IMG/VR virus record: IMGVR_UViG_3300036985_005814
Location: 6,328-70,327 of that record
DNA: 64,000 nucleotides
From: a virus
Strand: one strand, 5' to 3'
Position 1 is the first letter of the stretch. Each line of letters begins with the position of its first letter. Positions 603 to 37,381 of the stretch are shown piece by piece. Position numbers and translations under genes: made by a program. Under the pieces are notes generated by a model. The model had not been told where the DNA came from and did not search any database. It was given only the letters and a program-made list of their open reading frames with translations.

Positions 603-3398
603 ATGAAAAATCTAACGTCCGTGAAGAAAACTCAACTTGGATACCCCGTTCTGTCAGACGACCTACATGACAAAATCTTTGGCACCGAGAAGCCACAGAA
701 AATGTCTCGTCTGTCCATTCAGAAAGCAGAAAACCTGCTGAAAGAGTTTGATATTCCTGTCCCTGTAGATCACCCTGCAGGTCTGTATGATGGCCCTCTG
801 CCGCTTCCAGACTTGAAGGGTGATTTTTTGCGCGATCATTTCGAAAAGATCGCTGGCGAGCAAGTTGGCCGCTACAAGAAGCTCGGTGATCAATTCTCTC
901 GCTGCAAACTTCCCCCCCTCCCTCCACCGGACCAGTTCGTATTTGAGCCAGGCTGGGTTCGTTACGAGTGGGTGGAGAATGAGGATGCGGGTGGGTGGTA
1001 TATTGAACATGTGGATTTTCCCGAGGAGGAAGCATTCACGTTTGATACCGAGACCTATGTGCACGGTGGTGCGTTCCCGATCATTGGCACCGCTCTCAGT
1101 GAGAAAGCGGCGTATGTGTGGATGGCTGCTGAACTAATTGATCCGACTATTCCGGAAAGTCAGTGGGACCAGCACGAGCTAATTCCGATTGGAACCAACC
1201 GCTTCATTCCCGGTCACAACATTAGCTATGACCGTGTTCGCGCCCGCGAAGGTTACAACCTCGACCAAACCACCCCGGAAAACTTCTACTTCGATACTCT
1301 GTCCGCTCACATCGGTGTGTCTGGCTTGGCCAGTGGTCAACGCTGGCTGTACGTTCTTGCAGGCAAAGACCCTGAGAGTCTGACTCCGGACGAGAAGCGG
1401 AAATTGCGATATGCGCCCAAGTGGCTTGACAAGGGTGCCACGAATAGCCTTGTGCAGTGTTACAACTTCCACGTTGCAGCCGTCCGAAAGTATTTCGGAG
1501 AAGATGTCAAAGAGCTGGGCGACGTAGATAAAAAGGTTCGTGACATCTTCGTGGATGCTACGCACCTTTCTCAGATTCGCCAGGTTCTGACTGACGCTCT
1601 CGACTACGCTCTGAAAGACGCTTACTACACCGCCGAATTGTTCCAGGCGCTGTGGCCAAAATATCTTGATAGCACACCTTCGATGGTGGCCCTCTGCGGT
1701 CACTACCATCTGAATGGGTCGATCATTCCTCTTGTGGATAACTGGTCCGAGTGGATTGAAGATGTAGAGAGCGTCTATAAGGAATACAACGACGAGATGA
1801 CGCAGATCTGTAAGGATCTGGTGTGGAAAACTTATGAAGACTGGCGCGTCTTGTACCTTAACGATCCTGCCAAAGCCCAGCAATGGGTTCGGAGAGATCC
1901 GTGGGTTTCTCAACTTGACTGGGAGATTAAGTCTACGAAAGGTAAATACGCGCACATCCCAAACTGGGTGCGTCCGTTCATCAAAGATGAGAATCAGCAC
2001 ATCGGTGTGAAGTCGAACCTGGCTCACCTGATGCTGAAACTCAAGTACGAAAACAGCCCGATGATCTTCACCAAGAATGATGGCTGGTGTTATCATGACG
2101 AGGACGGTAACCTGACGAAGATCCCCCACCCGAAAGGCAATGGAGACAATGTTGGCGGTGTGTTGAGCAAAGATTTCGTGGAAGATATGGCGGTCGGGCG
2201 CCTCAGCAGCGACCTTCCCGAAGCAAAACGTGCGCTCGAGATTGCCAACTCTGTGTCCTACTGGACGTCCGTGCGCAAGCGTGTGATGGATCGCATCTTC
2301 CTGCGTGCAAACAACCCTTACGGCGAAGACTCCCTGGTAACTCTGCCCGAGATCCTCTGCCACGGCACGGTTACTCGCAGAACCGTAGAATCGCTGATGG
2401 TTACGATGTGTTCTACCAAGAACTGGCGCATCGGCACAGAGCTGAAAACCCGAGTCAAAGCTCCCGATGGCTGGAAGATTGTGGGTGCTGACTTTGACGG
2501 TCAGGAAATGCAAATCGCTTCAATCTACAGCGACAAGTGGGAAGGTGGCCACATTGGTTGCTCACCTTTCGGTTACAACGTTCTGAGTGGCTCGAAAGAG
2601 GCAGGCACGGACCCACACAGCGCCCTCGCCAAGCTGGCAGGGGTGGACCGGGACACCGCTAAGATCGCCGGCTTCGCTGTTCTATACGGGGCTGGTGTCC
2701 GTGCTGTGCAGACCTACATCCGCCGCAAGTATCCAGAAAAGTCCCCCACAGAAGTGAAAAACTTCGCCTACCGTATTCTGGAAGGCAAGAAGGGTAAGCA
2801 GCGGTCCGGCCTTTACGAAGGAGGTTCTGACTCCGGTTGCTTCAACTATATGGAAGAGATCGCAATGCGAACTCGCGTGCCTCAACTCCCGTGCCTCGGT
2901 ACGAAGATCTCGACTGCGATGCGCCCCGCCGCTGTGGGTGACGACTTCAAGACTGGTCGGGTGAACTGGACGATTCAATCGTCGGGTGCGGAGATTCTGT
3001 CAATCTTCCTCACCTCGATCCACTGGCTTACCAAAGAGTACAAGATTCCAGCCCGGTTTATACTGAGTATCCATGACGAGATCTGGTTTATGACACCGGA
3101 TCGTTACGCAGAGCAATTTGCTGTTCTGTTTCAAATCGCTCACATGTACACCTGGTCTTTGTTTCACTCGGCGGTGGGAATTCCAGAGCTGCCGCTGTCG
3201 CGGGCATACTTCTCGAGCGTAGCGATTGACAACCGCATTCGCAAGTCTCCCAAGGAAAAGACTGTGACGCCCTCTAACCCTGGCGGTGACAAAGAACCTG
3301 CGGGGGTTGAATACTCGATGAGGGAACTGTCCGAAATCGGGGCAATCGACAAACTTAACACTCGCTTCAACGCAATCAAGAAAGGCCTCATCAAATGA
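603..3398 (+). CDS. family A DNA polymerase, mitochondrial polymerase gamma-like
   Basis: Exonuclease motifs FDTET, GHNISYDR and DTLSAHIGVSGL; polymerase motifs GADFDGQE (A), RDTAKIAGFAVLYGAG (B) and SIHDEI (C); POLG-type blocks GTVTRR, GSKEAGTDPHS, RVNWTIQSSG and TPSNP. Confidence 0.93.
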   Translation: MKNLTSVKKTQLGYPVLSDDLHDKIFGTEKPQKMSRLSIQKAENLLKEFDIPVPVDHPAGLYDGPLPLPDLKGDFLRDHFEKIAGEQVGRYKKLGDQFSRCKLPPLPPPDQFVFEPGWVRYEWVENEDAGGWYIEHVDFPEEEAFTFDTETYVHGGAFPIIGTALSEKAAYVWMAAELIDPTIPESQWDQHELIPIGTNRFIPGHNISYDRVRAREGYNLDQTTPENFYFDTLSAHIGVSGLASGQRWLYVLAGKDPESLTPDEKRKLRYAPKWLDKGATNSLVQCYNFHVAAVRKYFGEDVKELGDVDKKVRDIFVDATHLSQIRQVLTDALDYALKDAYYTAELFQALWPKYLDSTPSMVALCGHYHLNGSIIPLVDNWSEWIEDVESVYKEYNDEMTQICKDLVWKTYEDWRVLYLNDPAKAQQWVRRDPWVSQLDWEIKSTKGKYAHIPNWVRPFIKDENQHIGVKSNLAHLMLKLKYENSPMIFTKNDGWCYHDEDGNLTKIPHPKGNGDNVGGVLSKDFVEDMAVGRLSSDLPEAKRALEIANSVSYWTSVRKRVMDRIFLRANNPYGEDSLVTLPEILCHGTVTRRTVESLMVTMCSTKNWRIGTELKTRVKAPDGWKIVGADFDGQEMQIASIYSDKWEGGHIGCSPFGYNVLSGSKEAGTDPHSALAKLAGVDRDTAKIAGFAVLYGAGVRAVQTYIRRKYPEKSPTEVKNFAYRILEGKKGKQRSGLYEGGSDSGCFNYMEEIAMRTRVPQLPCLGTKISTAMRPAAVGDDFKTGRVNWTIQSSGAEILSIFLTSIHWLTKEYKIPARFILSIHDEIWFMTPDRYAEQFAVLFQIAHMYTWSLFHSAVGIPELPLSRAYFSSVAIDNRIRKSPKEKTVTPSNPGGDKEPAGVEYSMRELSEIGAIDKLNTRFNAIKKGLIK

Positions 3399-4142: not shown

Positions 4143-4558
4143 TCGTTGAAGACCTTGAGGATTTCACCTACCTTTTGAGTTTTGGCGAGAACATTTCCAT
4201 TCATGTTCGAGAACTCTGCCCGAAAGATTTTTACTTCGCGCAGATTCTTCGAAATCAAGAAACCGGAATGCTCCCTCTGATTGCTCGACTCATTCAAAAC
4301 CACGACGATCTAGCCTACTTCACCCTCCCTCAAACGGAGAAAATCTTTAAATGGATTGGAGAAGAGGTAATCAACGAAAAAGTTTTGACGGTTGAAAACT
4401 GGCTCGAAGTTTCTTTCCACCTCTGCAAACAACGCTGGGACAGCACCGTAGACTGGTTAGAGAAGCAACCGATGAGCAAAGTCCTCACAATGATCAGCAT
4501 CGTTGAAGATTTTGCGGAAAAACAAGAGCAAGAGATCAAAAAGAGCGCGAAGCGGTAA
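4133..4558 (+). CDS. -1 frameshift extension (T-like) of the tail assembly chaperone
   Basis: C CCA AAC (4133-4139) fits X XXY YYZ just before TGA; the -1 frame is open from there to 4558. Confidence 0.7.
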   Translation, partial: PKLIVEDLEDFTYLLSFGENISIHVRELCPKDFYFAQILRNQETGMLPLIARLIQNHDDLAYFTLPQTEKIFKWIGEEVINEKVLTVENWLEVSFHLCKQRWDSTVDWLEKQPMSKVLTMISIVEDFAEKQEQEIKKSAKR

Positions 4559-4971
4559 TGATTACCTTTCAAGTGAAAAAAGGCGGTTTCACTCAGTTTA
4601 ACTTAAACTGGTGGAAGCCCACACAGAAAGAGTGGGCTCCCGTTCTCTTGAAAGACCACGCCGTCCCTTGGCGGCAGGAATCTGACCCGACGACGGGAAG
4701 ACCGTGGGTTTCCCTAACGCCAAAATACGCGATTGCGAAACTCCGCAGATACCCCGGCCAGCCTATTTTGCGGGCAACCGGGAAAATGCAAGATCAAGCC
4801 GAAATTCTACCGAAAGGGGAAGGCTTCGAGGTGAAAGCCGCTCCCTACGGAGTATATCACCAGTTCGGAACGTCACGAATGGCTGCGAGGCCATGGGTAG
4901 GAATTCCGGATAATTCCCTCAAGCAGATTGTCCCAATCGCTTGGAAAAACATTCTTACACAAAAACGTTAA
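4558..4971 (+). CDS. virion morphogenesis/tail completion protein (Mu gpG/P2 gpS-like)
   Basis: DPTTGRPWVSL...ILRATG...YHQFGT..MAARPWVG signature. Confidence 0.8.
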   Translation: MITFQVKKGGFTQFNLNWWKPTQKEWAPVLLKDHAVPWRQESDPTTGRPWVSLTPKYAIAKLRRYPGQPILRATGKMQDQAEILPKGEGFEVKAAPYGVYHQFGTSRMAARPWVGIPDNSLKQIVPIAWKNILTQKR

Positions 4972-5719: not shown

Positions 5720-5823
5720 AAGTAAGCACACATTCGTGTCCCAAGGGTAGCTCTACGGAGACCACGCAGGAGTCCTCCTTGCCTGCACTACTTTCGGGAA
5801 AGAAGGAACACTTACTTGAAATC
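5720..5823 (+). promoter_or_regulatory. long structured 5' leader of the sheath gene
   Basis: Nested inverted repeats: AAGTAAG/CTTACTT, GTGTCC/GGAACAC, CTC-TACG-GAG, GCAGG/CCTGC. Confidence 0.4.
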
Positions 5824-8800
5824 ATGGCCACTTTTTCTCTAGGCGGTGGTGTAACCCCTGGCGCACCTGGTGTATACATCAATGAGCGCGCCGGTGTTGT
5901 TGCAAACGCTGACATTGCCAATTTTAGCACTGTTTACATGCTGGTGGAAACTCCAGAAACAGTGCCCGTTACAGTATTCCCTTATAACACACCAACTCCG
6001 GTCACTTCGCTCAACGACTACTTCGCCCTTGTTGGCGGAAGCGTTCCCGAAAGTCGGATCCCCCTGCTGAGCTACAACTGCGTCAACGAATTCTTCCAGA
6101 ACGCACAGGTTGGCGACCTTCGCGTTGTTCGCGTTGGCACACCTGACCAAATCGTTGAGATTGAGATTCTTCCCAACGGTACCAAGCAGAGCAATGCTGG
6201 TCTTCCCTCGAACTTCGAGGCTGGAGACGTCGTTTACGCTCAACTCGTGATCAACGGGAATCGCCTTGTAGCAGGTGATGGGTCTACAGGTTACAACGCC
6301 GACGGAGAGTGGCTGGGTGTTCCGGTTACAATTCCCGTAGATTATATCGCCGGCGACGAAGTCAACAACCGTCGAATCTCCTCGGCTATCGCAACTGCAA
6401 TTGCAGAAGCCATCGAGAGCAACCCGAGCGTTCGTAGCGCAGTCTACGTTCGTGACTTCGGTCTTGTGACAACGATTAACCCTCTGTCCAACTCTGAAAA
6501 TGCTTTCGTAAGCATTGCTGCTTCCACATTCGACGCCAACGTAAGCGTTGTTCCGCTGGTCCTGCCTGTTGGCGCCCAGTACGTAATGATGCAGAATGTT
6601 TACAACATTCAGAACATTGTTGGTCAGCAACAGAATCTGGAGAGAGTTCCTCAGGACTACATTCAGTGCATCAACACTGCTTTCGATGGTCAGCAAGATC
6701 AGGGCTACCTGATTACTCCTACTGCATACGCTCAGTTTGATGCTGACGGCCGTGCTGCGATTGGAGCTGCTGCTGCCGAGCATTGCGCTAACAACAACTA
6801 CAAGTGGATGGCACTTGCCGATCCCGGTCCTTTCCTTGTGACCGATGTCAACAAGTATAGCGTATACACTCCTCACCAACCCGCTGCTAACCTGGTTACC
6901 GGCCTCAAGTATCTGGTTGACAATGCCATGTACGAGTGGACCGGTGCCGATGTCACTTACGACAAGCTCACCTACCAAGCTCTGATCGCTTCACCGACTG
7001 CAGAAACTGCCGTTACTCAGTCGAAGACTGCGACTCCGGTTGCTGCTGGGGAGAAAGTTGGTCTTCTGGATTCCGCCTCTTTCGAGGTTGATTCGATCGT
7101 TGGCGACACAATGGTTGTCCTCGACGTCCAGAACTACTGGCCGGTTTCCTACCAGATCCAAGAAGTTACTTTCAGTGGTGCTACGGGAGACATCCTGAGC
7201 ACAATCGGGGAAGACGGAACAATCTTTGTTGTTGCTCCCCCATACGACCTGACAGCGACAGGCGATTACTCCTTCAACAACGTTTTCTTCGCTCTTGACG
7301 CTTCTAGTGCTGTTGCCGTCCTGAACGAAGTCATTGCTGCTGGTGGTTCGATCAACCTGACAACCCCAGTCAATGCTGTGGACTTTGGCGGAAGCGTTGG
7401 AACATGTAACCTCACCTACGTTGTTCCCTTCTACAACCTGCCTCAGACAATTAACGGTCAAACTTCAAACCTTCTGCAGAACATTACTGGAGCTGCCCAG
7501 TATGTGAACACACTGCACCTTCCTGCTAGCATTCAGGAAGCCACCGCTAACTACCGTCTGAATTTCGTATCTCGTACAATCCTGGACCCCGATGCCTCGG
7601 TGGCTGGTTCCACCGGACCCTACACAGGTGCGGCTCAGATTACTTGCGTCGGCCACGGTTTAACAAACGGTCAGAAACTGTACTTCACTCAACCAGTGAA
7701 GACAAACCTTGGTGCAAACCTTTTCCGTGCAACAACCAAGATTTCCGAGGTGCTTTACTACGTTAAAGTGATTGATGCGGACACCTTCAGCCTGGCTGAA
7801 AGCCTGACTGCTTACACCAGTGGTGCCTTCGTAACAATCCCGAGCGGAACATCGTCTCTGGTGTCGAGCCCCACGATCTTCTACACGAAAGTTCTTGGTG
7901 GTGAGGCAACTTCGGCCACCCTGGCGGAACTTTCTGTTGTTCCGTTTATTCGCGGTAGAAAGTACGGCCTGAACAGTGGCCAGATTGCATCGGAAGCTTC
8001 TGTTGCTGATGCTGCCCCGGCACCTGCAACATCCAACCCTGCCGTTTCAATCTTCTTCAACAACAGTCTGACTGCTCTTGGAGTTGGTCTTGTTTCCCCG
8101 TTCGGTGAAAACCCCACCGCCGGTTGGCTGCCTAAGCTTACTCTCACAGCCCCTGGTTCTTCTTCTACAACTCTTGAGAACTGGTACTGTACGCCTACTG
8201 TTGATCAAAACTTCGCGTCCCAGGCTTTCCTGGTTCCTTCGGTTGAACCCATTCTTGGCGGCTCTTACAACCCCACGGGAACATCTACCAAAGGTCCAAT
8301 TTCTACTCTGGGCAGTGTCACTGGCGGAACCGGGTATACTAACGGAACTTACTTAAATGTTGCCCTTACCGGTGGAACAGGCAGTGGTGCTACAGCTGAT
8401 ATCACCGTTGCTGCTGGTATCGTTACTGTTGTTACCCTCACGAACGGAGGTTTTGGTTACACAGCGGCGGATTCCCTGTCTGCTCCTACCTCCGTCATCG
8501 GTAGTGGAACACTATTCGCAGTTCCCGTTGGCGCCATCACGGCCGGGATTGGTATCCTATCCCTTGCAAAACCTTATGCTCAGGCCGCTGGTCTGGTTAA
8601 TGGGTCCGGTAGAGTTGACTTCCAGGGTCAAATTACCAAGTTAACTGGTGTTTACTTCGACGTAATTACAGCTAGTGGTTTTGCCCCTGACGGCACTACT
8701 CCCGTGATCATTGGTGATCGGATTGCTGTTATCTACAACGGAAGCTCCTACTCCTGGGCCGTGGTTCCTGCTGATGGCGATCTTTCCACCGTGGGTCAGC

Positions 8801-9708
8801 CCTGCTACGGCTCACAAGTGGGTCTCGACTTCACTCCGGAAACGACTCCTCCGTCAATCCTGTGGCGTTTCGATCCTATCACTTCCACCGAAATCATCAA
8901 TGATGCTCTTCGTGGAGTTGGTTTCAACGGTGTTCCCCAAGCTGAGTTCATCGAAGCCGGTGTTGATAACGTGAACCGTCTGTACACAGATAGTCAGCGT
9001 TATTTCCAACCCTTTGGTTTCATCGCGTACTACGGTCCGTATATCGAGAACGCTTCGGGTCAGTGGATTCCTCCTTCACCTTACGTGACTGGAATCGCCC
9101 TGCGTCGTTACCGTGCGGAAGGTTACCAGTTCCCGCCTGCCGGCGTCAAGTATCAACTTGCCGACGCTGTGGCTGCCCAGATTCCGATCAACTCGGCTCA
9201 GCAGAACCTGCTGAATCCGGACGGTTGCAACGCAATTCGTACCCTGCCTGGTTATCCGACGAGCGCAGTGTTCGTTTGGGGCGGAAGAACTCGTGTGAAC
9301 TCGGACGACGCTCAGCAGCGCCTGTATCAGTTCGTAAACACTCGCGTCATTCTGAACGTTGTTTACGGCTCGCTGAGAAACGCTTTCGACAGTCAGATCT
9401 TCAATGTGATCGACGGTTTCGGCGTTGCCTTCAACCAGATCATCTCTGTTGGAAACAGCGTTCTAAACCAGCTGTACTCGCGTGGTGCCCTGTTCGGTGC
9501 TCGCCCAAGCGACGCCTTCCAGGTTATCTGCGACTCTCGCATCAACCCTCCAGCGTCACTTGAGAACGGAATCGTCAACGCTAAAGTGTTTGTAACTCCT
9601 GTTCCAACTCTGGAAAGAATCCAAATCGACCTGATTCGGGTTGCCATTGGTCAGATGCAGAACGAGCTGAATGCTCAAGGACTGGGAACTAACAACACTG
9701 GTTTCTAA
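5824..9708 (+). CDS. contractile tail sheath protein with large insertions
   Basis: N-terminal PGVYINE; C-terminal YYGPY...IPPS, VWGGRT, FVNTRVI, GALFG, PVPTLERI; ATG at 5824. Confidence 0.92.
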   Translation: MATFSLGGGVTPGAPGVYINERAGVVANADIANFSTVYMLVETPETVPVTVFPYNTPTPVTSLNDYFALVGGSVPESRIPLLSYNCVNEFFQNAQVGDLRVVRVGTPDQIVEIEILPNGTKQSNAGLPSNFEAGDVVYAQLVINGNRLVAGDGSTGYNADGEWLGVPVTIPVDYIAGDEVNNRRISSAIATAIAEAIESNPSVRSAVYVRDFGLVTTINPLSNSENAFVSIAASTFDANVSVVPLVLPVGAQYVMMQNVYNIQNIVGQQQNLERVPQDYIQCINTAFDGQQDQGYLITPTAYAQFDADGRAAIGAAAAEHCANNNYKWMALADPGPFLVTDVNKYSVYTPHQPAANLVTGLKYLVDNAMYEWTGADVTYDKLTYQALIASPTAETAVTQSKTATPVAAGEKVGLLDSASFEVDSIVGDTMVVLDVQNYWPVSYQIQEVTFSGATGDILSTIGEDGTIFVVAPPYDLTATGDYSFNNVFFALDASSAVAVLNEVIAAGGSINLTTPVNAVDFGGSVGTCNLTYVVPFYNLPQTINGQTSNLLQNITGAAQYVNTLHLPASIQEATANYRLNFVSRTILDPDASVAGSTGPYTGAAQITCVGHGLTNGQKLYFTQPVKTNLGANLFRATTKISEVLYYVKVIDADTFSLAESLTAYTSGAFVTIPSGTSSLVSSPTIFYTKVLGGEATSATLAELSVVPFIRGRKYGLNSGQIASEASVADAAPAPATSNPAVSIFFNNSLTALGVGLVSPFGENPTAGWLPKLTLTAPGSSSTTLENWYCTPTVDQNFASQAFLVPSVEPILGGSYNPTGTSTKGPISTLGSVTGGTGYTNGTYLNVALTGGTGSGATADITVAAGIVTVVTLTNGGFGYTAADSLSAPTSVIGSGTLFAVPVGAITAGIGILSLAKPYAQAAGLVNGSGRVDFQGQITKLTGVYFDVITASGFAPDGTTPVIIGDRIAVIYNGSSYSWAVVPADGDLSTVGQPCYGSQVGLDFTPETTPPSILWRFDPITSTEIINDALRGVGFNGVPQAEFIEAGVDNVNRLYTDSQRYFQPFGFIAYYGPYIENASGQWIPPSPYVTGIALRRYRAEGYQFPPAGVKYQLADAVAAQIPINSAQQNLLNPDGCNAIRTLPGYPTSAVFVWGGRTRVNSDDAQQRLYQFVNTRVILNVVYGSLRNAFDSQIFNVIDGFGVAFNQIISVGNSVLNQLYSRGALFGARPSDAFQVICDSRINPPASLENGIVNAKVFVTPVPTLERIQIDLIRVAIGQMQNELNAQGLGTNNTGF

Positions 9709-9713
9709 CCTAA

Positions 9714-10004
9714 ATGAGAGTCAAAATGAACAAGGAATTAACGCTACTGATTCCTGACTCTCTTCTACTACAGCTTGAACTTAGGGCGAGAGAGCAGGGG
9801 GTTTCTACGGAAACCCTTTGCCTCTCCCTTCTTTCCAGCGTAAAACAAGAAGAGGATCTGGTGGATCCCTTATACTATCAATCCCTCAGTCACAGTAGCA
9901 TGCGGCTAGAGGTTAACAAAGTAATTCAAAGCCCTCTTTCTCCAGAGGAAGTTCGCAAAAGGCTAAACAGGCTTGAGTTTGAAATTTCCCGTAGATATCG
10001 ATGA
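9714..10004 (+). CDS. small protein with ribbon-helix-helix-like N-terminus
   Basis: LTLLIPDSLLLQLELRAREQGVS pattern. Confidence 0.5.
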   Translation: MRVKMNKELTLLIPDSLLLQLELRAREQGVSTETLCLSLLSSVKQEEDLVDPLYYQSLSHSSMRLEVNKVIQSPLSPEEVRKRLNRLEFEISRRYR

Positions 10005-10539: not shown

Positions 10540-10564
10540 AATAAACCATAAACGCTGTTGCCGT

Positions 10565-11239
10565 GTGAGTTACCTCAAACACTATATCAAACTAATGCGG
10601 AAGGCGGAGTACCGTGGGTGGACGAAAAAGTCTGCCCCGTGCTATGTTGAAGAGCACCACATTTTAATCAAGGCAATTTTTGGGGAGAATGACCGGGTGG
10701 TTTATTTGACGGCGAGGGAGCACTTTATTGCGCATCTGTTGCTGTGGAAGGCATGCCGAAAGCGGTATGGAGTTCAACACTGGAAAACGGCGAAAACTGG
10801 TAAAGCGCTCCAGTCTATGAGCATGAAGTCTAAGTTTACTGTAAACCGTTACGTTCTGAGCTCTCGGGAGTTTGAAATAGCAAGAGTGGCGAATATCGAA
10901 AGTATGCTTGGTGATAATCACTGGAGTAGGCAAGAAGGTGCTGTAAACCCTTTGATTGCCCTGAACAAAGATCCGGTTAGGGCACAGTACATCGGAGAAA
11001 TCAATGGAAAGCGGGAGAAAGAGAAGTGGGATAAAGGGGAGCATCAGTGGCAAGACCCCGAGTTCATCGAAAGCAAGAGGCAACGCATGGTTAATGGGCA
11101 AGCAGCGCTGATGGGGTCAAAAGTAAAAGGAAAACTCTGGTGGAATAACGGAGTGAAACAAACTCGTGCCCTTGAGTGCCCTGGCGAAGGGTGGGTCAGA
11201 GGCAGATTGCCTTTCCCAAAAATGTTCGGAGGTAAGTAA
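10565..11239 (+). CDS. free-standing HNH homing endonuclease
   Basis: EEHHIL...VYLTAREHFIAHLLL; C-terminal WWNNG...PGEGWVRGR. Confidence 0.85.
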   Translation: MSYLKHYIKLMRKAEYRGWTKKSAPCYVEEHHILIKAIFGENDRVVYLTAREHFIAHLLLWKACRKRYGVQHWKTAKTGKALQSMSMKSKFTVNRYVLSSREFEIARVANIESMLGDNHWSRQEGAVNPLIALNKDPVRAQYIGEINGKREKEKWDKGEHQWQDPEFIESKRQRMVNGQAALMGSKVKGKLWWNNGVKQTRALECPGEGWVRGRLPFPKMFGGK

Positions 11240-11240
11240 A

Positions 11241-12680
11241 GTGGCGCAAAGATTCAAAACTGCTCCGGTCCCTAGCGGGGAAGTTGCTCGCTACGTTTCT
11301 GACCCGTATAATTTGTCAAGCATTTACATGTTTGGCAGTTCAAGTCCATTTTCTGGAACGGGCAACACAATCGTCAGACCAAACGACGATCTCCTCATTC
11401 AGAAAGGCGGAAACCGTGCCTTAGCTGTATATCAGCGCCTCCTATATGACGAGCAAGTTCAAGGCTGTTTTGCCAAACTTGTTCAAGAAATTACCTCTCG
11501 CCCCTGGTACATCGAGCAATACAGCGATAAACCGGGCGACGTTGCCGTAAGAGATTTCGTAAGCGAAGTGCTCGAAGAAATTCCGCTGGATGATATTTAT
11601 AAAGGTTTAGCTGAAGCAATCATCTCAGGTTTCTCCGTAGGAGAGGTGATGTGGAAAAAGACGAAGAGAGGCGTAGTCCCGTTCGACGTTCGCATGCGTG
11701 ACCAGCGTCGGTTCGTGTTTCAGGAGAAAGAAGAGGCTCAAACGGGTTTCACAATGCGCTGCCTGACATTCAACCGAATGTTCGAGGGTGTTGAGCTCCC
11801 CAACCGCAAGTTCATCGTTAACCGTTACTGGGTTTCACACAACGGAGACCCCTATGGTGCTGCATTGGGCCGCATCTTGTACCCCCTTGTTAAATTCCGT
11901 CGCAGGGCGATTGAATCTTACGTTCTTTACGGCGACCGGTACGCCACACCGACTGCAGTTGCCAAAGCACCCCTGAGTGCAAGTACGAAAGAAATCGACA
12001 CCTTGTACGATCATCTTTCCAACCTGAGCCAAGAAACGGCAATGATCCTTCCGGAAGGTTACGAGCTGGAATTCGTAACACCCAGCGGAAGCCCCGATGT
12101 ATTTAAGAACCTGATTGACTATATCGACAAAGAAATCAGCGTTCTGATTTGCGGGGAAAATGAAGCGGGCCAAGCTGAAGCTGGCTCTCGGGCCTCTTCT
12201 CAAGTTGCCAATACTGTTCGAGTCGTAAAGGCTTCCGAACTTTCCGAGATTATCTCGCAGACCCTTACGCAAACTCTGGTTCGATGGATTGTAGACCTTA
12301 ACTTCGGAACCGATGTTGCTGCACCCGTTCTCACAAGAGAGTTCCGCATTGAGGAGTCAACTCTGACGATGCCGGACGTTTCTCTGCTCATTCAATCTGG
12401 ATTCACCCCTAAGAAAGAATGGCTGGAACGGCACTTCCGTGTTGAACTGGACGACAAGAAAGAAAGTGGTGGTCCTGCCGATACTTCTTCGGCAACGACT
12501 TACAATCCTGACGAAGATCAGAACCTGTTTGGTTCAATTTTCGGCGACGAAAGTGCAGCACCTTCTGAGGAAACTGCCCTTCCTGCGGAAGAACCGGAAG
12601 ATCCACAAGAAGCCCTCGCTGCTGAGAAAGAAGCTCTGCTTGCTGAGCAAGAAGCTCTCTCTGCTGAAGAAGAAGGGTAA
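11241..12680 (+). CDS. portal protein (Mu gp29/DUF935-like)
   Basis: GFSVGEVMW, PYGAALGRILY, GSRASSQV motifs; probable GTG start at 11241; acidic tail. Confidence 0.88.
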   Translation: MAQRFKTAPVPSGEVARYVSDPYNLSSIYMFGSSSPFSGTGNTIVRPNDDLLIQKGGNRALAVYQRLLYDEQVQGCFAKLVQEITSRPWYIEQYSDKPGDVAVRDFVSEVLEEIPLDDIYKGLAEAIISGFSVGEVMWKKTKRGVVPFDVRMRDQRRFVFQEKEEAQTGFTMRCLTFNRMFEGVELPNRKFIVNRYWVSHNGDPYGAALGRILYPLVKFRRRAIESYVLYGDRYATPTAVAKAPLSASTKEIDTLYDHLSNLSQETAMILPEGYELEFVTPSGSPDVFKNLIDYIDKEISVLICGENEAGQAEAGSRASSQVANTVRVVKASELSEIISQTLTQTLVRWIVDLNFGTDVAAPVLTREFRIEESTLTMPDVSLLIQSGFTPKKEWLERHFRVELDDKKESGGPADTSSATTYNPDEDQNLFGSIFGDESAAPSEETALPAEEPEDPQEALAAEKEALLAEQEALSAEEEG

Positions 12681-12708
12681 AAAATGTTATCAGATCCCCT
12701 TATAGACT

Positions 12709-15108
12709 GTGTTCACTAAAAGAATTCACGTATTTCGTGCGGGTGATCAGACCTCTGCTCAAGGAATTAAGCGGACATTCTCTCCGGAAGATCTTCAGCA
12801 AGTTGTCGACACATACGACCCCTCGGTCCATGAAGCCCCTATAGTTCTTGGCCACCAAGGGGACAACGACAGCTTGCCTTCTTTCGGGTGGATCCAAGGA
12901 TTTTCAAGAGAAGGGCAAAATCTTTACGCTGATGTCTCTTTTACTGACACGGCGAAAGATCTGGTCAAAGACGGTCACTACCGTAAAGTTTCAATCTCTT
13001 TCTATTCCCCTGATAGTCAAATCAACCCGCACGGGGGGAAATGGAGCGCCAGACATCTAGCATTGCTGGGGGCCTCTCCCCCGGCGGTGAAAGGTCTTGA
13101 GCCTTTCTCTTTTGTCGAGAAAGAGGGATGTTTTGACTTTGCTGTTACCCTCACCCCTGACCAAATTTTCGACGACGAACTTGGCCCCACCTTGATCGTT
13201 GAGAAAAGCCCGTTAGAGGTTCTTCGCGAGAAACTTGAAGAAGTACGACAGGATGTTTCATCCGCCGTTAAAGATCTTCAAGAATCGAACGACGAGCAGA
13301 AAGAAACGGGTGTGGACCAAGCGGCTGGAGCCGAAGTCCAGGCCGAAACTGCTAGCCCCGACGAAAACCAACAGTTTGCGGAGGGTTCGAAACAATCCAA
13401 ACGAAACATCAAAACCAACGAAATCACTCAGCAAACGGCTGAACTTGAAGACCAATTCCCAGAGGAACAATTTATGGAAGACGGAAAAATCAGCCGTAAG
13501 CACGCCAAAGGTGCCCACGGCCAAGTAATGCAAGTCGTAGAAAACGTTTACGACGAGCAACACAAAGAGCTGCCTCCAGCTCTGAAAGCTAAAGCGGAAG
13601 AAATGAAGGCCAAAGCCAAGGCTCACCCTGGCGAAAAAGTCGAGATGGAAGAAGGCGACGAAATGGATTATGACGAGACCGGTCGTTATGACACCGCTCG
13701 TTCTTCCGACAACGGTTACGCTGACCGCATGAAAACCGGTAAGGAAGGCAAGGGTGGCGTTGGCGATGATCGCATGCACACTGCTAAAAGCGGTGAGCAG
13801 GAAGCCGATCGCGTTAGCGTTGCCAAAAACTCCGAGCAAGACTCTGATCGCAAGAAGACTGCTAAGGACGGCTCCGATAATGCCACTGGCGAATCTCGCT
13901 GGGCTGGTCAAGCTGATGCCGAAGACCGCACCATGAACGGTGACCAATACGACACAGACGCTGATAGCTACCCTGAACCGAACCAGCCTAAGACTGCCTC
14001 CGGCGCTAATCCCGCTGGTCGTGAAGACTCTGATACCAAGATTCCTACCGAAACTGAGGAATCCCCCGACAATGAAGTATTCGCAGTCAGCACCATCAAC
14101 GTAATGTCTGATGGCAGCATGCGCGTAATGCGTCAAAAGAGCAGCGACGGTCGTCAAGCTACCAAGGGTGGCAAGATTGACCACGCCGAGCCCGAAGCAG
14201 ACGAAGTAACTTCTGAGCTGGGCGTAACTGCCATGGGCGAAGTTGACGATCTGACTCAAGGCAAAGCCAAGATCAAGAAGGGTCAACTGGAGCCTGGTCA
14301 GTTTGAAGGCGGAGTTGCCGAAGTAACTGGCCCCGATGGTGTGTTCGCCGAGGGTTACAAGGGAGAGAAGAAAGCTTCTAAGAAGCAACTTACTCCTGGT
14401 GCGATGGATGAGATTGACGAGGCCGCCCAAGTTGTTGGTCCCGAAGGCGCATTCGCCGAGGACAATCTGAGCGGTGAGTTTGAAGGTGGTCCGAACCAGA
14501 AGACTAAGCGTTCCGGCGGTGTGTTCGCTGAAGAGCACGGTGAGAAGAAGAACCCTTACACCAAGACTGGGTTCGGTTCCACCTACGACGAAGATGGCGA
14601 CGACGCCGACGAAGAAGATTACAACGAGCTTTCCGCTGACCATTGCGGAATGGATTACGGCATGGGTTCAATGGCCCAAGCTAAGCCAGATGGTTTCCCC
14701 TCCGCCATCTTCGAGGAGCTGGATCGCCTGAAGAAAGAGCACTCTGAACTGCAGCGTCGTTACGCTGAAGAGAAGATGAACGCCCGCAAGGCCAAGATTG
14801 CCTCATTCGTTGAGTCGCTCTACGAAGAAGGTCGTCTGACCGACGGTATCATGTCTCAGTCTGAGCTGCAAAGCTACTGCGAAGGTCTTGACTTCGGTAC
14901 TCTGGAGTTCTCTGAAGGTGAAACTGCTGCCACCAAACTGCTTGGTCTGCTGAGCAAACTTCCTCCGATGGTTTCCTACAGCGAAATCGCTGGTGGAACT
15001 TTCCAATACGCCGAGGAAGATCTGGATCCCCACGCAAAAGCTCTGAAACTGGTTGAATCCGAAGGAATCGACTACGTTGAAGCGATCAAGCGTACGATGT
15101 ACAGCTGA
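12709..15108 (+). CDS. prohead protease-scaffold fusion (Mu gpI-like)
   Basis: EAPIVLGH, GWI, YRKVSISFY, HLALLGASPPAVKGL; long acidic scaffold region. Confidence 0.85.
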   Translation: MFTKRIHVFRAGDQTSAQGIKRTFSPEDLQQVVDTYDPSVHEAPIVLGHQGDNDSLPSFGWIQGFSREGQNLYADVSFTDTAKDLVKDGHYRKVSISFYSPDSQINPHGGKWSARHLALLGASPPAVKGLEPFSFVEKEGCFDFAVTLTPDQIFDDELGPTLIVEKSPLEVLREKLEEVRQDVSSAVKDLQESNDEQKETGVDQAAGAEVQAETASPDENQQFAEGSKQSKRNIKTNEITQQTAELEDQFPEEQFMEDGKISRKHAKGAHGQVMQVVENVYDEQHKELPPALKAKAEEMKAKAKAHPGEKVEMEEGDEMDYDETGRYDTARSSDNGYADRMKTGKEGKGGVGDDRMHTAKSGEQEADRVSVAKNSEQDSDRKKTAKDGSDNATGESRWAGQADAEDRTMNGDQYDTDADSYPEPNQPKTASGANPAGREDSDTKIPTETEESPDNEVFAVSTINVMSDGSMRVMRQKSSDGRQATKGGKIDHAEPEADEVTSELGVTAMGEVDDLTQGKAKIKKGQLEPGQFEGGVAEVTGPDGVFAEGYKGEKKASKKQLTPGAMDEIDEAAQVVGPEGAFAEDNLSGEFEGGPNQKTKRSGGVFAEEHGEKKNPYTKTGFGSTYDEDGDDADEEDYNELSADHCGMDYGMGSMAQAKPDGFPSAIFEELDRLKKEHSELQRRYAEEKMNARKAKIASFVESLYEEGRLTDGIMSQSELQSYCEGLDFGTLEFSEGETAATKLLGLLSKLPPMVSYSEIAGGTFQYAEEDLDPHAKALKLVESEGIDYVEAIKRTMYS

Positions 15109-15116
15109 GGATTGAA

Positions 15117-15770: not shown

Positions 15771-15856
15771 GGGTAAAACTATTGAGTTTAACTGGGTTAA
15801 AAACAAGCCCCAGAGCAAACAAAAAACATTGAAGTCCACTCTCTTAGGATAAAAAC

Positions 15857-16428: not shown

Positions 16429-18371
16429 ATGATGAATCGAGTTGGTTCCCACCGGAAGTGATTCCGGATGGAAAATCGGGTGAATTGCTGGGACCCCCTA
16501 ACGTTTAGTCGAGGGAAATCAGCAGCCAAGTTTACTTCGGGTAACCTATTGTATAATAGGTTTGAAGTAAAAAGGTTCAACGACTAGAAAGTGACTTACC
16601 CAAGAATAAACTTTCCACGAGTGCCCGACGCTCGGATCGATCACTACTTCAATCGTTATCTTCGTATCTGTTGCTCTCTTCTTGACATTGGTCGAAAGAA
16701 GCGAAAAGGTGATTTCCTTGAGAAACACCGAATCTTTCCGGGGTCCCTCGGTGGAGACTATGGTGAGGAGAATGTTGTGATAGTTACACGAAGAGAGCAT
16801 GCTCTTCTTCATTTGTTACTTCACAAATCTTTCCCAGAACACAGGAAAATAGCGCAATGTGCCGCTATCATGTGTGGTTCAAAAGGCTCAAAAACCTACA
16901 AATCGCTTGCTTACATCCAGGGCTGTGAGGAAAAATCTAAACTCATAGCCGAGTCGAACAAAAGAAGGAAAGTCACCTGGGGTGACAAGATCTCTCAATC
17001 TTTGAAAGGTCAAGAGAAAACAGAAACTCATCGAGACAAGATCGGTAGATCTATGCGTAAGGTTTGGGAAACCGACCCTTCAATGAGAGACCGGTGTTCT
17101 CGAAAAGGTTCCAAACACACTGACGAGTCAAAACAAAAAACAAGTGAAAAAATCTCTCGTCAAAAATGGTACTGGAAGATAGAAGATGAAGTCGTGATTA
17201 GAACTCGGTCGGAAAAACACCCTGGGGATGGGTGGAGCCGAGGAAAAAATCCGAGATGATGATATAGTCTGACCTCACGCGAAATCGTGAGAAGTGGTGA
17301 ATAAAGAGTCATCACGATAACAAAGTGCTCCAGCAAACCTATGCTGGCGTAGATCCGATTCTGACTACGCTCGCACAAGGTTTCATGCTTCCGGCGACTA
17401 ATATCGCCAACTTTATTGCCCCTGTTGTTGACACCCCGACTCGTGCTGGCCGCATTCTGCGCTTCGGCAAAGAGCAATTCGCCATCAACGATTTCCGTCG
17501 TGCGTACGGAACCAACATTCCGTTCGTTCAAAGCCGTTACGATGCTGAGCCTTACGCGCTCGAGCAAGAAGTCGTGGCTTGGGAACTGCCCGAAGAAGTC
17601 ATCGAGAACGCTGGCGAAGGTCCTGCTCAGGTTGATCTGCGTGCGATCGAAACTCGCAACGCTATGAGCCGCCTGATGAATGCTTACGAGTACACTGTAA
17701 GCCAGGCTGTAACCGTAACCGCTGGTTACAACCCTTACGAGCCTTCTGCTGGTGCTGGCACTCAAACAGGTCTGGGTTTCACAACCTGGGCTAACTTCAA
17801 CACCGCCTACGGTTCTGCTACTGGCCCTTCGGCTTGGTCTTCACTGACTTCCAACCCGATCGAGGACATCCTGACCCTGAAGCGTTCGGTTGCCAACCAG
17901 ATTGGTATTCGCCCGAACTCGATGGTTCTGGGAACCGCTGTGTTTGACCAACTGCTGACCAACCAAGCGATCCTTGAGCGCATCAAGTACACGACTGCCG
18001 ATTCAATCGACACAGATCTTCTGGCTCGTTACTTCGGTCTTGAGCGTGGTCTGCGCGTTGCTGAAGGTCGTTATCTTGCCACCGATGGCACCCTGCAGCC
18101 TGTGTTCCCTTCAAACGGAATCCTGCTGTTCTACAGCCCCAATGGTCCTTCAGACAGCGTAATGCCTGCTGGTGGCGCTAACGCTGCTACCCCTGCTTTC
18201 GCCTACACCTATCAGCTGACCGGCACCCCTGCTGTGCGCCCCGAGTACTACATTCGTGAGCGTCGCGTGGTTCGTGCTGAAATCACTGTTGAGCGTGTTG
18301 TTAACCTGGTTGGCCTTGGCGCTACGGGTCTTATCGGTTCTGGTGCGATGATCTCCAACATTCTTGGTTGA
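16429..18371 (+). CDS. major capsid protein, spliced: join(16429..16437,17328..18371), 350 aa
   Basis: SD AGGAGA then ATG ATG AAT; splicing gives MMNLQQTYAGVDPILTTLAQG...; sequence resembles capsid proteins of Mu-related head modules and the gene position fits. Confidence 0.85.
16438..17327 (+). ncRNA. group I self-splicing intron
   Basis: P GAATTGCTGGGA, Q AATCAGCAGCCAAG, R GGTTCAACGACTAG, S GATATAGTCT; P7 GACTA/TAGTC; P1 GAAU/GUUC with U-G at the 5' splice site; terminal G at 17327. Confidence 0.92.
16591..17259 (+). CDS. intron-encoded HNH homing endonuclease
   Basis: EKHRIFPGSLGG...NVVIVTRREHALLH plus NUMOD3-like repeats (KHTDESKQK); lies between intron elements R and S. Confidence 0.88.
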   Translation: MTYPRINFPRVPDARIDHYFNRYLRICCSLLDIGRKKRKGDFLEKHRIFPGSLGGDYGEENVVIVTRREHALLHLLLHKSFPEHRKIAQCAAIMCGSKGSKTYKSLAYIQGCEEKSKLIAESNKRRKVTWGDKISQSLKGQEKTETHRDKIGRSMRKVWETDPSMRDRCSRKGSKHTDESKQKTSEKISRQKWYWKIEDEVVIRTRSEKHPGDGWSRGKNPR

Positions 18372-20048: not shown

Positions 20049-23000
20049 ATGCCTAGATATGCTCCGCTACCCTCTGTTTCCATTGATCCCCGGAATGAGG
20101 CGCAGCTTGTTCAAGAGGCTTCGCAGAGGGTCTATCAAGCGTCTAATCAAACCCTTAACGATTTTAGCTCTGGAAACCCCCTGGCAGCTTTGCTTGAGGG
20201 GCAGGTCTTCGCACAAGGCGAATTTCTCTTCTGGCTGAATCAACTACCCGAAAAGATCCTGCTTGAATGGATTGGCCCTTTCCTGGGTGCCATGAGGCGT
20301 CTGGGTACGGCGTCGATTGCGCGTTTGGCGTTAACCATACCCCCATCAAGTTCTGCCGTCACAGTTCCGTCTGGTTCGTCTTTTACTACCGACCCGAACA
20401 TTACCGGTGGCGAAGTTTTCAGCTTCGTAACGCTTGAGAACCACACATTTCCGCCGGGTGAAACTGTTCTCTATGTTCCTGTTTACTCGGAGTTTGTAGG
20501 TTCTCAGTATAACGTCCCTGCAAACGCAATCGTAGGATCCTCTGCTGTAAACGTTGCTGGGTTAAGCGCGATTAACCCTCAGCCAGCTACTGGTGGATCC
20601 GACGTTGAAACTTACCAAGAGGTTCAGGAACGTTTCTTCACGCTGATTCGCCGGAAGAACCCTGTCAGCTCACAGGATTGGCAAGATTTCTTCATCGACT
20701 TTTTCGGTGTTGGCACACAAACTTCAGTGCAACCCAACAGAGGGTCCGAGTACTCTTACAACTATCTGACGGACTACATCCTACCTAGCGGACAAGTTTC
20801 TTTCTTCGTTCTTGGACCAGGCGGAGTGGAGTTAACGCAAGAACAGCTGAGCAGAGGCCAAAACGTTGTTAACTTTTCAGTGCCGATTGGCACAACGGGG
20901 CATCTGTACCCTCTCACACTAAGCCAGGTTCAGTACGATATCACGCTAGAAGTTGACGCAAACAGCTCCTACGGAGTTAACCTGCGAAATGCTTCTCTGG
21001 ACTTTAGAAACCGGCTGTTTCAGATTCTGCAGCCAGGCAACGTCTTTCCTGCGTACACTGACCCAAGCGTCAGCGATGTTGATTCAGCCTTCAACTTAAC
21101 TTTCGATACCCCGTCGCGATACGTGAACCCGCGCATCGTCACAGCCAAAGCATTCAATACTCCGCCTCAACTCGGACCCACCGCAGCCCTTTATACACAG
21201 GTTTACGCTTTCGAACCAACCGAGTATCTTGTGAACCAAGACGATTTGGTTCTGGAAACGATTCCTTCCCAGAAATACTATCCTGCAACGACTTCTTTCA
21301 CCCCGTACTCGGACAGCAAAAAAGACCAGACAATTTACAACAACCTTCAGATGAAACAAATCCAGCGTCTGCAAGCTGGAAGTTTTCTGCAGAGCGACGT
21401 AGTTTGGTGGAGCCCCGCCGATGGGGGCGACGGGTCACTTCGGGTAATTCTGGATAATGTTAACATCGGATCGAAGACTGAAATTCCGGTCTTGATCGCA
21501 CAAGGCAAGATTTCGGGTCAGAAAACCTACTCCCCGTGGGTTGTTGGGAATAGCTACGCAAGCACCGTAAGCGGTGCGTACAACCCTGAGATTATTGAGT
21601 ACGACTACGTTCCGGGAGACGGGCAATTCATTCCGGAAACTCCGCAAGAGCTCCTGGTTGGCCCCATTTCCTCGTTCGGACCAATCACCCCCGGTCTAAG
21701 TTACACTGATGGCACATACACCGGGGTCCCATTACTCAATCTGTCAGGTCCCGGAGAAAACGCTGAGGCAACCATCACAGTTACCGGCGGCTCCGTGACA
21801 GCCGTCAACCTAGGGTTCGCGGGAACGGGGTATACCCCCGATTCTGTTTTAACAGCGTCTGATTCTAGTTTGGGGAACAGCGGTTCTGGTGATGGTTTTA
21901 GCATCCCGGTTGCTACAGTTACCGTTCCACGGTTAGGAAGCCTGGTTTGGGTTGTTGAGCAAAACTTCACACTAAATCCCCCTTCAAACAGCACTACGAG
22001 CGCTCTTGCTGAGGGTCTTCTCGGGTCTCCGGTTACACCAAACGTTCTTTCTTCCGGTGAATCCTACTTTGCAGGTACATGGGTAACCACTCCCCAAATC
22101 GGATCGGGGCCTAACGCCATCGCCGACCCTTACTACAACTATGTAGATCCGTTAAAGGGAGGCGTGAACAAATTCGCCTACGTTCTGCAAGGGTTTGTCT
22201 ACGAGCCTAGCACTCTGTCGACGAAAGAATACTTCGACCTTCTTGTTGAACTTGGGATTATCAAAGAGATCATTGTACGGAATGCGGATCTCGGTCTGCC
22301 TGTGTACAAGTACAAACCTCGCTTCCCGGTAGGAACGTACCTTGAGTACAGGGAGTCGAGTGTTTCTGAACCGCAGTATTTTGTTGCGACCGAGTACTTC
22401 ACCCCGAACAGCACTCTCATCAACGACCTGATTCAAGAAAACCTCGTTATTCCCCTTGCCTACACTCCTTCTCAACGGGTCAGTCTTGCAAACGCCATAA
22501 GCAACGGGGATATCACGACTCCAACAAGAATGTTTAGGTTCTTCAGAGGTGACACCACGTTTTTCCGGCAAGGTAGCACTGTTCTGTCGTACACTGCTAC
22601 AACGAACGTAACTCCCCTGTTTGACTTCTCGGTTTACCTCGAGAACGGTATTTTTGTCCCCTCCCGCGATTTCGCTGGGGAAGGTTTCTTCACGCTTCCT
22701 TACGTCCCGTACTTCAACCCTGCTTACGCTCTGTACTCTGAGGATACGATCACGTCGGAAGATGGCAGGAACCTTTACCGAGTCATGCGTGCTTTCACGC
22801 CGCAGCCTACCGTGACGGACTGGACAAACACAGTGGTAACGAACACTGCCAGAATTCAAGAATACGCCGGCAATCTTCTGCGGTACGTGAACGTTTACAC
22901 CTGCGATGAGCAGATCAGGTCTCAGTTCGGCCGAGATATCTCCGCGATCAAGTTAGGCATCGCAGACATCACACTGATTCCAAAGAACGAAGAGCGATTT

Positions 23001-37259: not shown

Positions 37260-37310
37260 GGCAGTTGATTGTTGTCATTTTGTTTGGACTTGCGTTCACT
37301 AAGCTATTTC

Positions 37311-37320
37311 AATCTTACCC
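37311..37320 (-). promoter_or_regulatory. late-promoter motif on the minus strand
   Basis: Reverse complement reads GGGTAAGATT, identical to 165-174; points into the desaturase cassette. Confidence 0.6.
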
Positions 37321-37381
37321 GCCACCCGGTGTTCGTCGGGGAGGTAGGGTAAAATTCACTGTACGAGTTGCCCTTCCAACC

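Follow-up and report, generated by a model that had tools for sequence, protein, structure and literature searches.

DNA polymerases of the mitochondrial gamma type (Pol gamma) have been reported in viruses that infect cyanobacteria. The passage on this subject in PMC7156551 names the siphoviruses A-HIS1/A-HIS2 (2011) and Mic1 (2020) as well as the cyanomyophages S-TIM5 (Sabehi 2012) and S-CBWM1 (Xu 2018), and the corresponding part of PMC10201439 places "several cyanophages" in the Pol gamma cluster of family A, function there being unproven. We describe here the gene polG (603..3398, plus strand) of a 64,000-nucleotide stretch of viral DNA, termed the window, which corresponds to bases 6328-70327 of a 70,327-base IMG/VR viral contig (IMGVR_UViG_3300036985_005814) classed as linear and with a CheckV completeness of about 32%. 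We assign a probability of about 0.88 to the reading, taken as a whole, that the protein encoded by polG replicates the DNA of an uncultured myovirus, which is S-CBWM1-like and probably a cyanophage of freshwater.

A preliminary description of the window had presented the occurrence of such a polymerase in a contractile-tailed phage with a Mu-like head as an extension of the known range of Pol gamma. That range, which comprises sipho- and myoviruses of cyanobacteria, is not extended by the window gene, as the cyanomyoviruses S-TIM5 (2012) and S-CBWM1 (2018) were already in print. The Mu-like head is no novelty either, S-CBWM1 and the S-TIM5 group being the nearest cultured relatives by both the terminase large subunit (TerL) and the Mu-related capsid protein; a contractile-tailed, Mu-headed cyanophage with Pol gamma is already known. 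What appears to be new here is an uncultured sister lineage of S-CBWM1, apparently from freshwater and with a larger genome. A keyword search of the open-access literature retrieved no description of this freshwater lineage, nor of the clade of short enzymes adjoining the eukaryotic ones that is presented below. The Pol gamma gene of the window lineage is intact, conserved and abundant in metagenomes, and its value is modest.

The product of polG is a Pol gamma homologue

The gene consists of a single intact open reading frame (ORF) of 931 amino acids (protein P0001), which starts with ATG and contains no internal stop codon. An antisense ORF lying inside it (1179..2513, minus strand, 444 aa) found no support. 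All the peptide blocks beyond the generic family A motifs on which the preliminary description had relied (DTLSAHIGVSGL..QR, WLD...NSL, GTVTRR, GTDPHS, RVNWTIQSS, YFSSVAID and TPSNP) are present in the translation, and HMMER aligns them with blocks that are conserved in yeast Mip1 and human POLG. The resemblance to Pol gamma is far beyond chance.

Two Pfam families match the protein above their cut-offs. PF18136, the "DNA mitochondrial polymerase exonuclease domain", aligns from profile position 6 to 282 of 282 with residues 67-354 (E 3.9e-60; 203.9 bits, cut-off 26.7), which delimits a predicted 3'-5' proofreading exonuclease domain of the Pol gamma type at 801..1664 (plus strand). PF00476, the family A polymerase profile, aligns with residues 612-843 (E 8.6e-11), corresponding to a predicted palm/fingers region with motifs A to C at 2436..3131 (plus strand). 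The enzyme begins with the Pol-gamma-type 3'-5' proofreading exonuclease, to which a short spacer joins the polymerase domain in the C-terminal part. When the protein was compared with PDB chains by phmmer, 32 sequences matched at E<=1; 14 of them are Pol gamma sequences, with E values from 2.6e-115 to 1.3e-105, and the best-scoring match outside the gamma group is a Pol I, with an E value of 0.031. Among phage proteins, gp77 of S-CBWM1, annotated as "DNA polymerase gamma" (MG450654.1; Aokuangvirus), is 56.5% identical to the polG product over its full length. As the preliminary description had held, the protein is a Pol gamma homologue: profile, sequence and the fold matches given below place it in the gamma subfamily of family A, probably as a single-chain polymerase, and set it apart from generic enzymes of the T7 or Pol I kind.

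Catalytic residues and predicted fold

Motifs were located in an alignment of the window protein with the enzymes of S-CBWM1, S-TIM5, A-HIS1/2, two short relatives, four opisthokonts, T7 (gp5) and E. coli (PolA). The residues of Exo I (D148/E150), Exo II (D210) and Exo III (Y335/D339) align with the eukaryotic, T7 and PolA ones, and the same alignment places motif A at D630/E635, motif B at R683, K687, F691 and Y695, and motif C at H824-D825-E826. In an alignment of 73 sequences, D148, E150, D210, Y335, D339, D630, E635, K687 and D825 are invariant. All exonuclease and polymerase catalytic residues are present in the window protein.

Motif B departs from the mitochondrial type. The window protein has Phe691 where the eukaryotic enzymes, T7 and S-TIM5 have Tyr, and it shares this Phe with S-CBWM1, A-HIS1/2 and E. 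coli PolA. Work on the T7 and Taq enzymes has linked Phe at this position of family A polymerases to discrimination against dideoxynucleotides, and the presence of Phe691 leads to the prediction that the window enzyme would discriminate against them. A split of phage Pol gammas between Phe and Tyr at the position, with S-TIM5 on the Tyr side, is reported in the passage of PMC7156551 on these enzymes.

An AlphaFold2 model built on the 73-sequence alignment reached a mean predicted local distance difference test score (pLDDT) of 94.4 and a predicted template modelling score (pTM) of 0.93. In a Foldseek comparison of the model with the PDB, ranks 1-35 are occupied by mitochondrial Pol gamma only (human, mouse and yeast; query TM-score, TMq, 0.73-0.86; E 8.5e-65 to 1.1e-26), and the first matches outside the gamma group (Aquifex Pol I, phage G20c, Klenow and T7) have TMq values of 0.32-0.38 and E values of about 1e-13. 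The model thus predicts that the Pol gamma fold extends over the whole protein, the stretch linking the exonuclease to the polymerase domain included.

Residues 66-498 and 502-894 of the window protein align with residues 72-484 and 522-934 of Mip1, so that it follows the core of Mip1 almost collinearly. In the alignment with the human chain, the first two matched stretches are separated by about 249 human residues and by 54 in the phage protein, which lacks most of the animal spacer insertion and also the long C-terminal tail of the fungal enzyme. From this near-collinearity and the difference in spacer length, the window enzyme is probably a compact, Mip1-like, single-chain form. The human region between the aligned stretches presumably includes the part that contacts the accessory subunit, and the phage polymerase would work without an accessory subunit of the Pol gamma B type, which belongs to the holoenzyme of animals only. 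With Mip1 and POLG it has in common the domain order, the exonuclease and polymerase catalytic residues, the gamma-specific blocks and the fold (TMq up to 0.86); it differs from them in its length (931 versus about 1200-1250 aa), in the motif B residue, Tyr in Mip1 and POLG, and in lacking the long fungal extension. For biochemistry, and for structure-function comparison with the human disease gene, a Pol gamma that is compact, single-chain and modelled with confidence, and that has Phe in motif B, would be convenient.

Should the protein be an ordinary T7-like or bacterial Pol I-like polymerase whose gamma resemblance is limited to generic family A motifs, the match to PF00476 and the motif B Phe, found in E. 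coli Pol I and not in mitochondrial Pol gamma, would be readily explained. We regard this as extremely improbable. The exonuclease profile matched is specific for Pol gamma, about 100 orders of magnitude separate the E values of Pol gamma from that of Pol I in the PDB search, and the full-length fold match is restricted to Pol gamma. T7 gp5, which is likewise a family A polymerase with a fused proofreading exonuclease, reaches a TMq of only 0.35-0.36, and in the IQ-TREE analysis presented below it lies, together with CRP-171 pol and PolA, across a branch of length 1.66 (support 99) from the gamma family. The Pfam, PDB, Foldseek and tree results together refute a T7-like or Pol I-like identity, and the Pol gamma assignment is retained.

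Phylogeny of the family

Two trees were calculated. The first (FastTree; 143 rows, 865 columns) contains the window protein, four named phage enzymes, 135 of the 150 listed representatives (800-1700 aa) and three outgroups (T7 gp5, CRP-171 pol and E. coli PolA); Mic1 was omitted from the trees, its gene being split. The second (IQ-TREE; LG+C20+F+G4, 844 columns) was obtained by a quick search on 62 of these rows, hand-chosen to span the clades, with the Shimodaira-Hasegawa-like approximate likelihood ratio test (SH-aLRT) as the only measure of support. The preliminary description had proposed a phylogeny as the decisive check, a grouping with T7-like or Pol I enzymes being what would speak against Pol gamma; in both trees the protein falls in the gamma clade, which is separated from the outgroups with a support of 97 in FastTree, beside the 99 given above for IQ-TREE. 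The window protein and that of S-CBWM1 are sisters in both trees (99 in each). In the IQ-TREE tree they belong, with S-TIM5, to an 18-row clade (100), and A-HIS1/2 belong to the clade next to it, of 14 rows (96); the support for joining the two is only 80.

All six eukaryote-named rows (two chytrids, Kwoniella, Trichinella, a choanoflagellate and an ichthyosporean) are contained in a 16-row clade (99). This clade joins not the named cyanophage enzymes but eight short rows, forming with them a 24-row clade (99). The short rows (P0153, P0161, P0162, P0164, P0198, P0211, P0231 and P0263) are 884-966 aa long, one being of 1225 aa. P0161 alone, used as query, gave no match in IMG/VR, and alignment A2 as query retrieved six IMG/VR loci. 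When eight IMG/VR sequences were added to the FastTree analysis, two identical ones, L088 and L089, fell among the short rows (99), the grouping with the opisthokont clade being supported at 96-99, and the window lineage, now with L014, L025 and L044, was still the sister of S-CBWM1. At least two identical members of the short group are thus found on IMG/VR viral contigs, with phage-type neighbours: those of L089 are C5 and Dam methyltransferases, an RNA ligase, an SF1 helicase, a deoxynucleoside kinase and a ribonucleotide reductase.

In the outgroup-rooted trees the eukaryotic Pol gamma looked nested within the phage diversity. An approximately unbiased (AU) test did not reject a topology in which the 43 phage-sized rows form one clade against the 16 rows of the eukaryote-bearing clade and the three outgroups (p-AU 0.699), and the tree constrained to monophyly of the phage rows was 9.62 log-likelihood units better than that of the free quick search. 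The nesting was therefore dropped as a claim, and we make no statement on the root or on the direction of transfer between phages and eukaryotes. The preliminary description had expected the gene to inform the origin of the mitochondrial replicase. Taking the AU result together with the position of the window lineage, which is not nearest to the eukaryotic clade in either the enlarged FastTree or the IQ-TREE analysis, the gene informs it little and, on these alignments, would not settle it. If the root lies among the phage branches, it is the phages with short enzymes, rather than the cyanophages considered to date, that among living relatives would stand closest to the donor of the mitochondrial replicase.

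Comparison with S-CBWM1 and other phages

By tblastn, 41 of the 76 contig ORFs of at least 60 aa match S-CBWM1, with identities of 21-66% (major capsid protein 66%, portal 63%, TerL 58%, polG 56.5%). The matching ORFs form collinear blocks with one module translocated. Upstream of polG, about 2 kb away and just beyond the window edge, lies a homologue of the topoisomerase II A-subunit (GyrA/TopoIV-A, E 3.1e-105), and small genes and a tail completion gene follow downstream; S-CBWM1 has the same arrangement, and the order gyrA-like gene, polG, tail completion gene is kept. Like the window virus, S-CBWM1 is a myovirus with a Mu-type portal and protease, TerL and PhoH. The two differ in the position of the module with the sheath, portal, protease, capsid and baseplate J genes, which in the window (5779-23138) immediately follows the polG cluster and is flanked by the homologues of S-CBWM1 gp83 and gp84, and in S-CBWM1 (122,036-139,069) is about 75 kb away. 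The locus L097, described below, has the module arrangement of the window and not that of S-CBWM1.

Further differences concern genome size and habitat. The expected genome of the window virus, obtained by arithmetic from the CheckV figures, is about 215-225 kb, versus 139 kb in S-CBWM1, and the window DNA recurs in metagenomes of freshwater type, S-CBWM1 being an estuarine isolate. In the practice of the International Committee on Taxonomy of Viruses, members of one genus share high nucleotide identity across the genome. A megablast of window positions 1-25000 against 50,697 phage records, S-CBWM1 included, gave no match, and judged by nucleotide identity the window virus would therefore lie outside the genus of S-CBWM1.

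The S-TIM5 group (S-TIM5, S-TIM54, S-TIM61 and S-TIM66) comprises myoviruses whose Pol gamma is about 38% identical to that of the window over 96-97% of its length and whose TerL (32%) and capsid protein (39%) are also related; unlike the window virus they have Tyr in motif B and marine hosts, and they are much more distant. The siphoviruses A-HIS1/A-HIS2 of Acaryochloris and Mic1 of Microcystis encode polymerases of the same type with 28-32% identity to the window protein and differ from the window virus in their long non-contractile tails; the Mic1 gene is, in addition, split by an intron, unlike the window polG.

Proposed role of polG in replication

Family A, B and C polymerases were searched for in records of the group. 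Complete S-CBWM1 and four of its long relatives gave no match for family B or for family C (0 of 5 for each, with the positive controls matched), and for family A exactly one match, polG, was obtained in each of five records, namely complete S-CBWM1, three long relatives and the contig containing the window. As polG is the only recognisable DNA polymerase gene in complete S-CBWM1, we infer a replicase role: Pol gamma would be the main replicative polymerase of the phage, with built-in proofreading. DNA polymerase and proofreading activities are, likewise, predicted.

A genuine Pol gamma could also serve as an auxiliary or repair enzyme, the genome being copied by a polymerase encoded on the unsequenced two thirds or by host Pol III. 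The incompleteness of the contig leaves room for this, no replicative helicase was identified beside polG, and S-CBWM1 encodes an exonuclease that resembles the epsilon subunit of Pol III. Against it stand the polymerase content of complete S-CBWM1, the conservation of full length and intact catalytic residues in every relative seen, and the conserved arrangement of polG beside the topoisomerase II A-subunit gene. We find the auxiliary role unlikely and favour that of replicase.

In mitochondria, Pol gamma is accompanied by a Twinkle-type helicase and a T7-type RNA polymerase. A Twinkle-like helicase, which the preliminary description had suggested looking for elsewhere in the genome, was not found on the contig, in its relatives or in four complete Pol gamma phages. 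The profile of the DnaB_C, gp4/Twinkle helicase family (PF03796) matched none of five long relatives and none of the complete genomes of S-CBWM1, S-TIM5, A-HIS1 and Mic1 (T7 control, E 6.8e-20), and T7 gp4 as a protein query matched nothing in the contig, three relatives and S-CBWM1, a search with no positive control. The T7-type RNA polymerase profile (PF00940) was equally negative in five records of the window lineage, again with no positive control, and in the same four complete phages (T7 control, E 9.9e-110). As the fragments of the window lineage are about 32-53% complete, absence of the helicase and the RNA polymerase is not proven for that lineage. Their absence from all four complete Pol gamma phages argues against the simple idea that one phage gave all three.

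As regards partners, Pol gamma would act with the topoisomerase II A-subunit homologue encoded upstream. Other proteins that would take part are a primase-annotated P-loop (DUF5906) protein, an FEN-type 5'-3' exonuclease and other replication genes that the relatives encode elsewhere, and the replisome would not use a helicase-primase of the T7/Twinkle type. The primase-annotated protein, of about 660 aa, is present in S-CBWM1 and in three of the five records searched (the contig and four long relatives), and matches phrog_25243 with an E value of 6.3e-131. That of L072, 661 aa long, lacks relatives of known structure (best E 0.3) and does not resemble T7 gp4 (E 1.3). S-CBWM1 encodes the FEN-type 5'-3' exonuclease and an RNase T/epsilon-like exonuclease.

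Distribution, host and transcription

Homologues of polG occur at 65 IMG/VR loci, mostly with 76-97% identity to that of the window, and at least 119 protein clusters have 67-83% identity to the window Pol gamma, on contigs of up to 165,888 bases. In related viral contigs the gene is kept at full length with intact proofreading and polymerase residues. An exhaustive profile-free search, in which eukaryotic sequences were counted as well, gave 1484 cluster representatives at E<=1e-3, of which 511 reached E<=1e-30. Near-full-length homologues are found in 11 of the 50,697 deposited phage records; the 11 records belong to eight phages, every one a cyanophage. Public metagenomes thus contain a Pol gamma family that is much larger than these eight cultured phages would suggest.

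The window stretch was found again in 13 coded studies, in metagenomes from freshwater, reservoirs, drinking water and sediment. The photosystem gene psbA (PF00124) is present in four of the five long relatives, whose contigs measure 99-118 kb at a completeness of about 46-53%; three of the four have a Pol gamma 94-97% identical to that of the window, and this points to cyanobacterial hosts. In one close relative psbA was matched in two separate pieces (G002:C1:99966-101655; L084, L086), which recalls the intron-split psbA annotated in S-CBWM1.

Prokaryotic genomes of 185,579 species were scanned for Pol gamma with two peptide patterns taken from a narrower alignment (A3), a procedure of low sensitivity. 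The scan gave two loci, both on contigs of metagenome-assembled genomes (MAGs). L097 (CALGUV010000039.1), a contig of 50,162 bases, comes from a MAG titled uncultured Microbacteriaceae bacterium; its polG is 57% identical to that of the window, and the downstream genes are the same, in the same order, through the tail sheath gene, so that L097 looks like a phage contig of the group of the window that was binned into a bacterial MAG. L098 is a MAG contig of 2.8 kb with no context. A published statement holds that no bacterium carries a Pol gamma gene; the scan is consistent with it and lends weak support to the absence of a bacterial Pol gamma.

The family being otherwise known from opisthokonts, and the AU test leaving a eukaryote-to-phage transfer possible at the level of the whole family, recent capture of the window gene from a eukaryote (e.g., a fungal or protist mitochondrial polymerase gene) has to be considered, as has an assembly chimera. 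Either is very unlikely. Identity to the eukaryotic proteins is only 31-36%, and the same gene is found in the same context in the 65 IMG/VR loci, S-CBWM1 and L097. Pol gamma, TerL and the major capsid protein rank the cultured relatives alike, with S-CBWM1 ahead of the S-TIM5 group, as would be expected if they had been inherited vertically within the phage lineage. The gene is, moreover, intronless, and its G+C content, near 50%, is in line with its surroundings (a table of PMC7472177 gives 51.6% for S-CBWM1). A resident phage gene remains the preferred interpretation.

Several points weigh against the assignment of polG as the replicase of a freshwater cyanophage. With the contig about 32% complete, a further polymerase or helicase could lie on the missing part, and the argument that polG is the only polymerase draws on complete S-CBWM1 and on half-complete relatives. 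The primase-annotated protein is absent from the contig, where only that third of the genome can be searched, and its only Pfam match, DUF5906 (E 2.8e-5), is below the family cut-off; the partner proteins are, in general, proposed from gene content. The contig itself, at its present completeness, shows no psbA, and the cyanobacterial host, and with it the designation as a freshwater cyanophage, is probable, being deduced from the relatives. On the favourable side, contigs of three RNA libraries from three studies overlap polG at 90-99% identity, a weak hint that the gene is transcribed; the runs were chosen for holding polG, DNA carry-over is possible, and no meaning attaches to parts of the stretch that lack RNA coverage.

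A broader view can be offered tentatively, and we consider it rather doubtful. Far from being a rarity of a few cyanophages, Pol gamma may have been the original replicase of an extensive phage assemblage, most of it uncultured, in which the freshwater S-CBWM1-like lineage of the window, with genomes of probably about 200 kb, would be one abundant branch. Pol gamma would have been co-inherited with a Mu-related head, the replisome would operate with no T7/Twinkle-type parts, and the short enzymes (about 880-970 aa) would be nearer to the opisthokont enzymes than the named cyanophage polymerases are.

Neighbouring genes in the window

The contractile-tailed phage with a Mu-like head of the preliminary description is borne out by the structural genes, all on the plus strand unless a position only is given. 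Downstream of polG, a gene for a tail completion/Neck1-like protein (4558..4971; phrog_26, E 5.7e-14) is the homologue of S-CBWM1 gp81. It is followed by that of a putative tail sheath protein of 1309 aa (5779..9708), which matches phrog_17610 (E 7.9e-46), phrog_23 (E 4.9e-23) and, weakly, PF17482, and is 45.5% identical to the tail sheath protein of S-CBWM1, gp167. The sheath gene and a gene for a Baseplate J-like protein (20049..23138; PF04865, E 6.6e-11) indicate that the predicted contractile tail is real. The head genes encode a Mu-type portal protein (11166..12680; PF06074, E 3e-73), a Mu-like prophage protease I domain protein presumed to act in head maturation (12709..15108; PF10123, E 1.4e-7) and the major capsid protein (17325..18371; PF03864, E 1.3e-8), which is 66.1% identical to that of S-CBWM1, 39% to that of S-TIM5 and 32% to that of RcapMu, the capsid being thus also related to Mu-like phages of the RcapMu type. 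A Mu gp36-like protein is encoded at positions 31379-32458 (E 1.3e-11). Further downstream lie the genes for TerL (34117..35850; PF17289, E 5.5e-14; 58.5% identity to S-CBWM1 TerL) and a PhoH-like ATPase (37265..38203; PF02562, E 7.3e-52).

Two ORFs of about 222 aa (10565-11239 and 16591-17259, plus strand) precede the portal and capsid genes, respectively. Both resemble S-CBWM1 gp28, a "putative HNH nuclease", with 33-38% identity over 65-108 aa, and they are possibly free-standing homing endonucleases within the head module. Two proteins with collagen triple-helix repeats (55316-56269 and 61935-62732, plus strand; E 2.2e-7 and 9.6e-22), which have no counterpart in S-CBWM1, are probably tail fibres.

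Interruptions of polG in relatives

The polG gene is continuous in the window, but in several relatives it is broken in, or close to, catalytic motifs. In window numbering, the interruptions at L046:12104-12950, L068:3832-7011 and L093:11807-12409 lie near residues 683-701 (motif B), that at L090:11798-12656 near residues 625-632 (motif A) and that at L054:7242-7875 near residues 481-501. HNH_3 and NUMOD4 domains occur in the insertion ORF of L090, and an HNH domain in that of L054. No Rfam family reached the gathering score in these five loci, so that the insertions are not identified as group I introns. The HNH ORFs are consistent with the insertions being mobile introns.

Other observations

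ARAGORN reported a tRNA-Leu(CAA) of 98 nt at 48765-48862 (minus strand); as it lies on the opposite strand within an ORF for a baseplate-wedge-like protein of 1282 aa, it is a probable false positive. S-CBWM1 carries 34 numbered tRNA genes, elsewhere in its genome. A 642-aa protein of the window (46273-48201, plus strand) has a weak protein-kinase match (E 2.9e-5, below cut-off) and is similar to the APH-like kinase region of S-CBWM1, and an APH/choline-kinase-like ORF is found upstream of the window (L003:600-1430); the annotation of S-CBWM1 includes several Ser/Thr kinases and phosphatases. Lastly, S-CBWM1 gp8 (L071:3729-5165), annotated as a "putative SNF2 DNA repair protein", matches the Pfam family Tet_JBP, of 2OG-Fe(II) dioxygenases (E 4.3e-18), which hints at DNA base modification in S-CBWM1.

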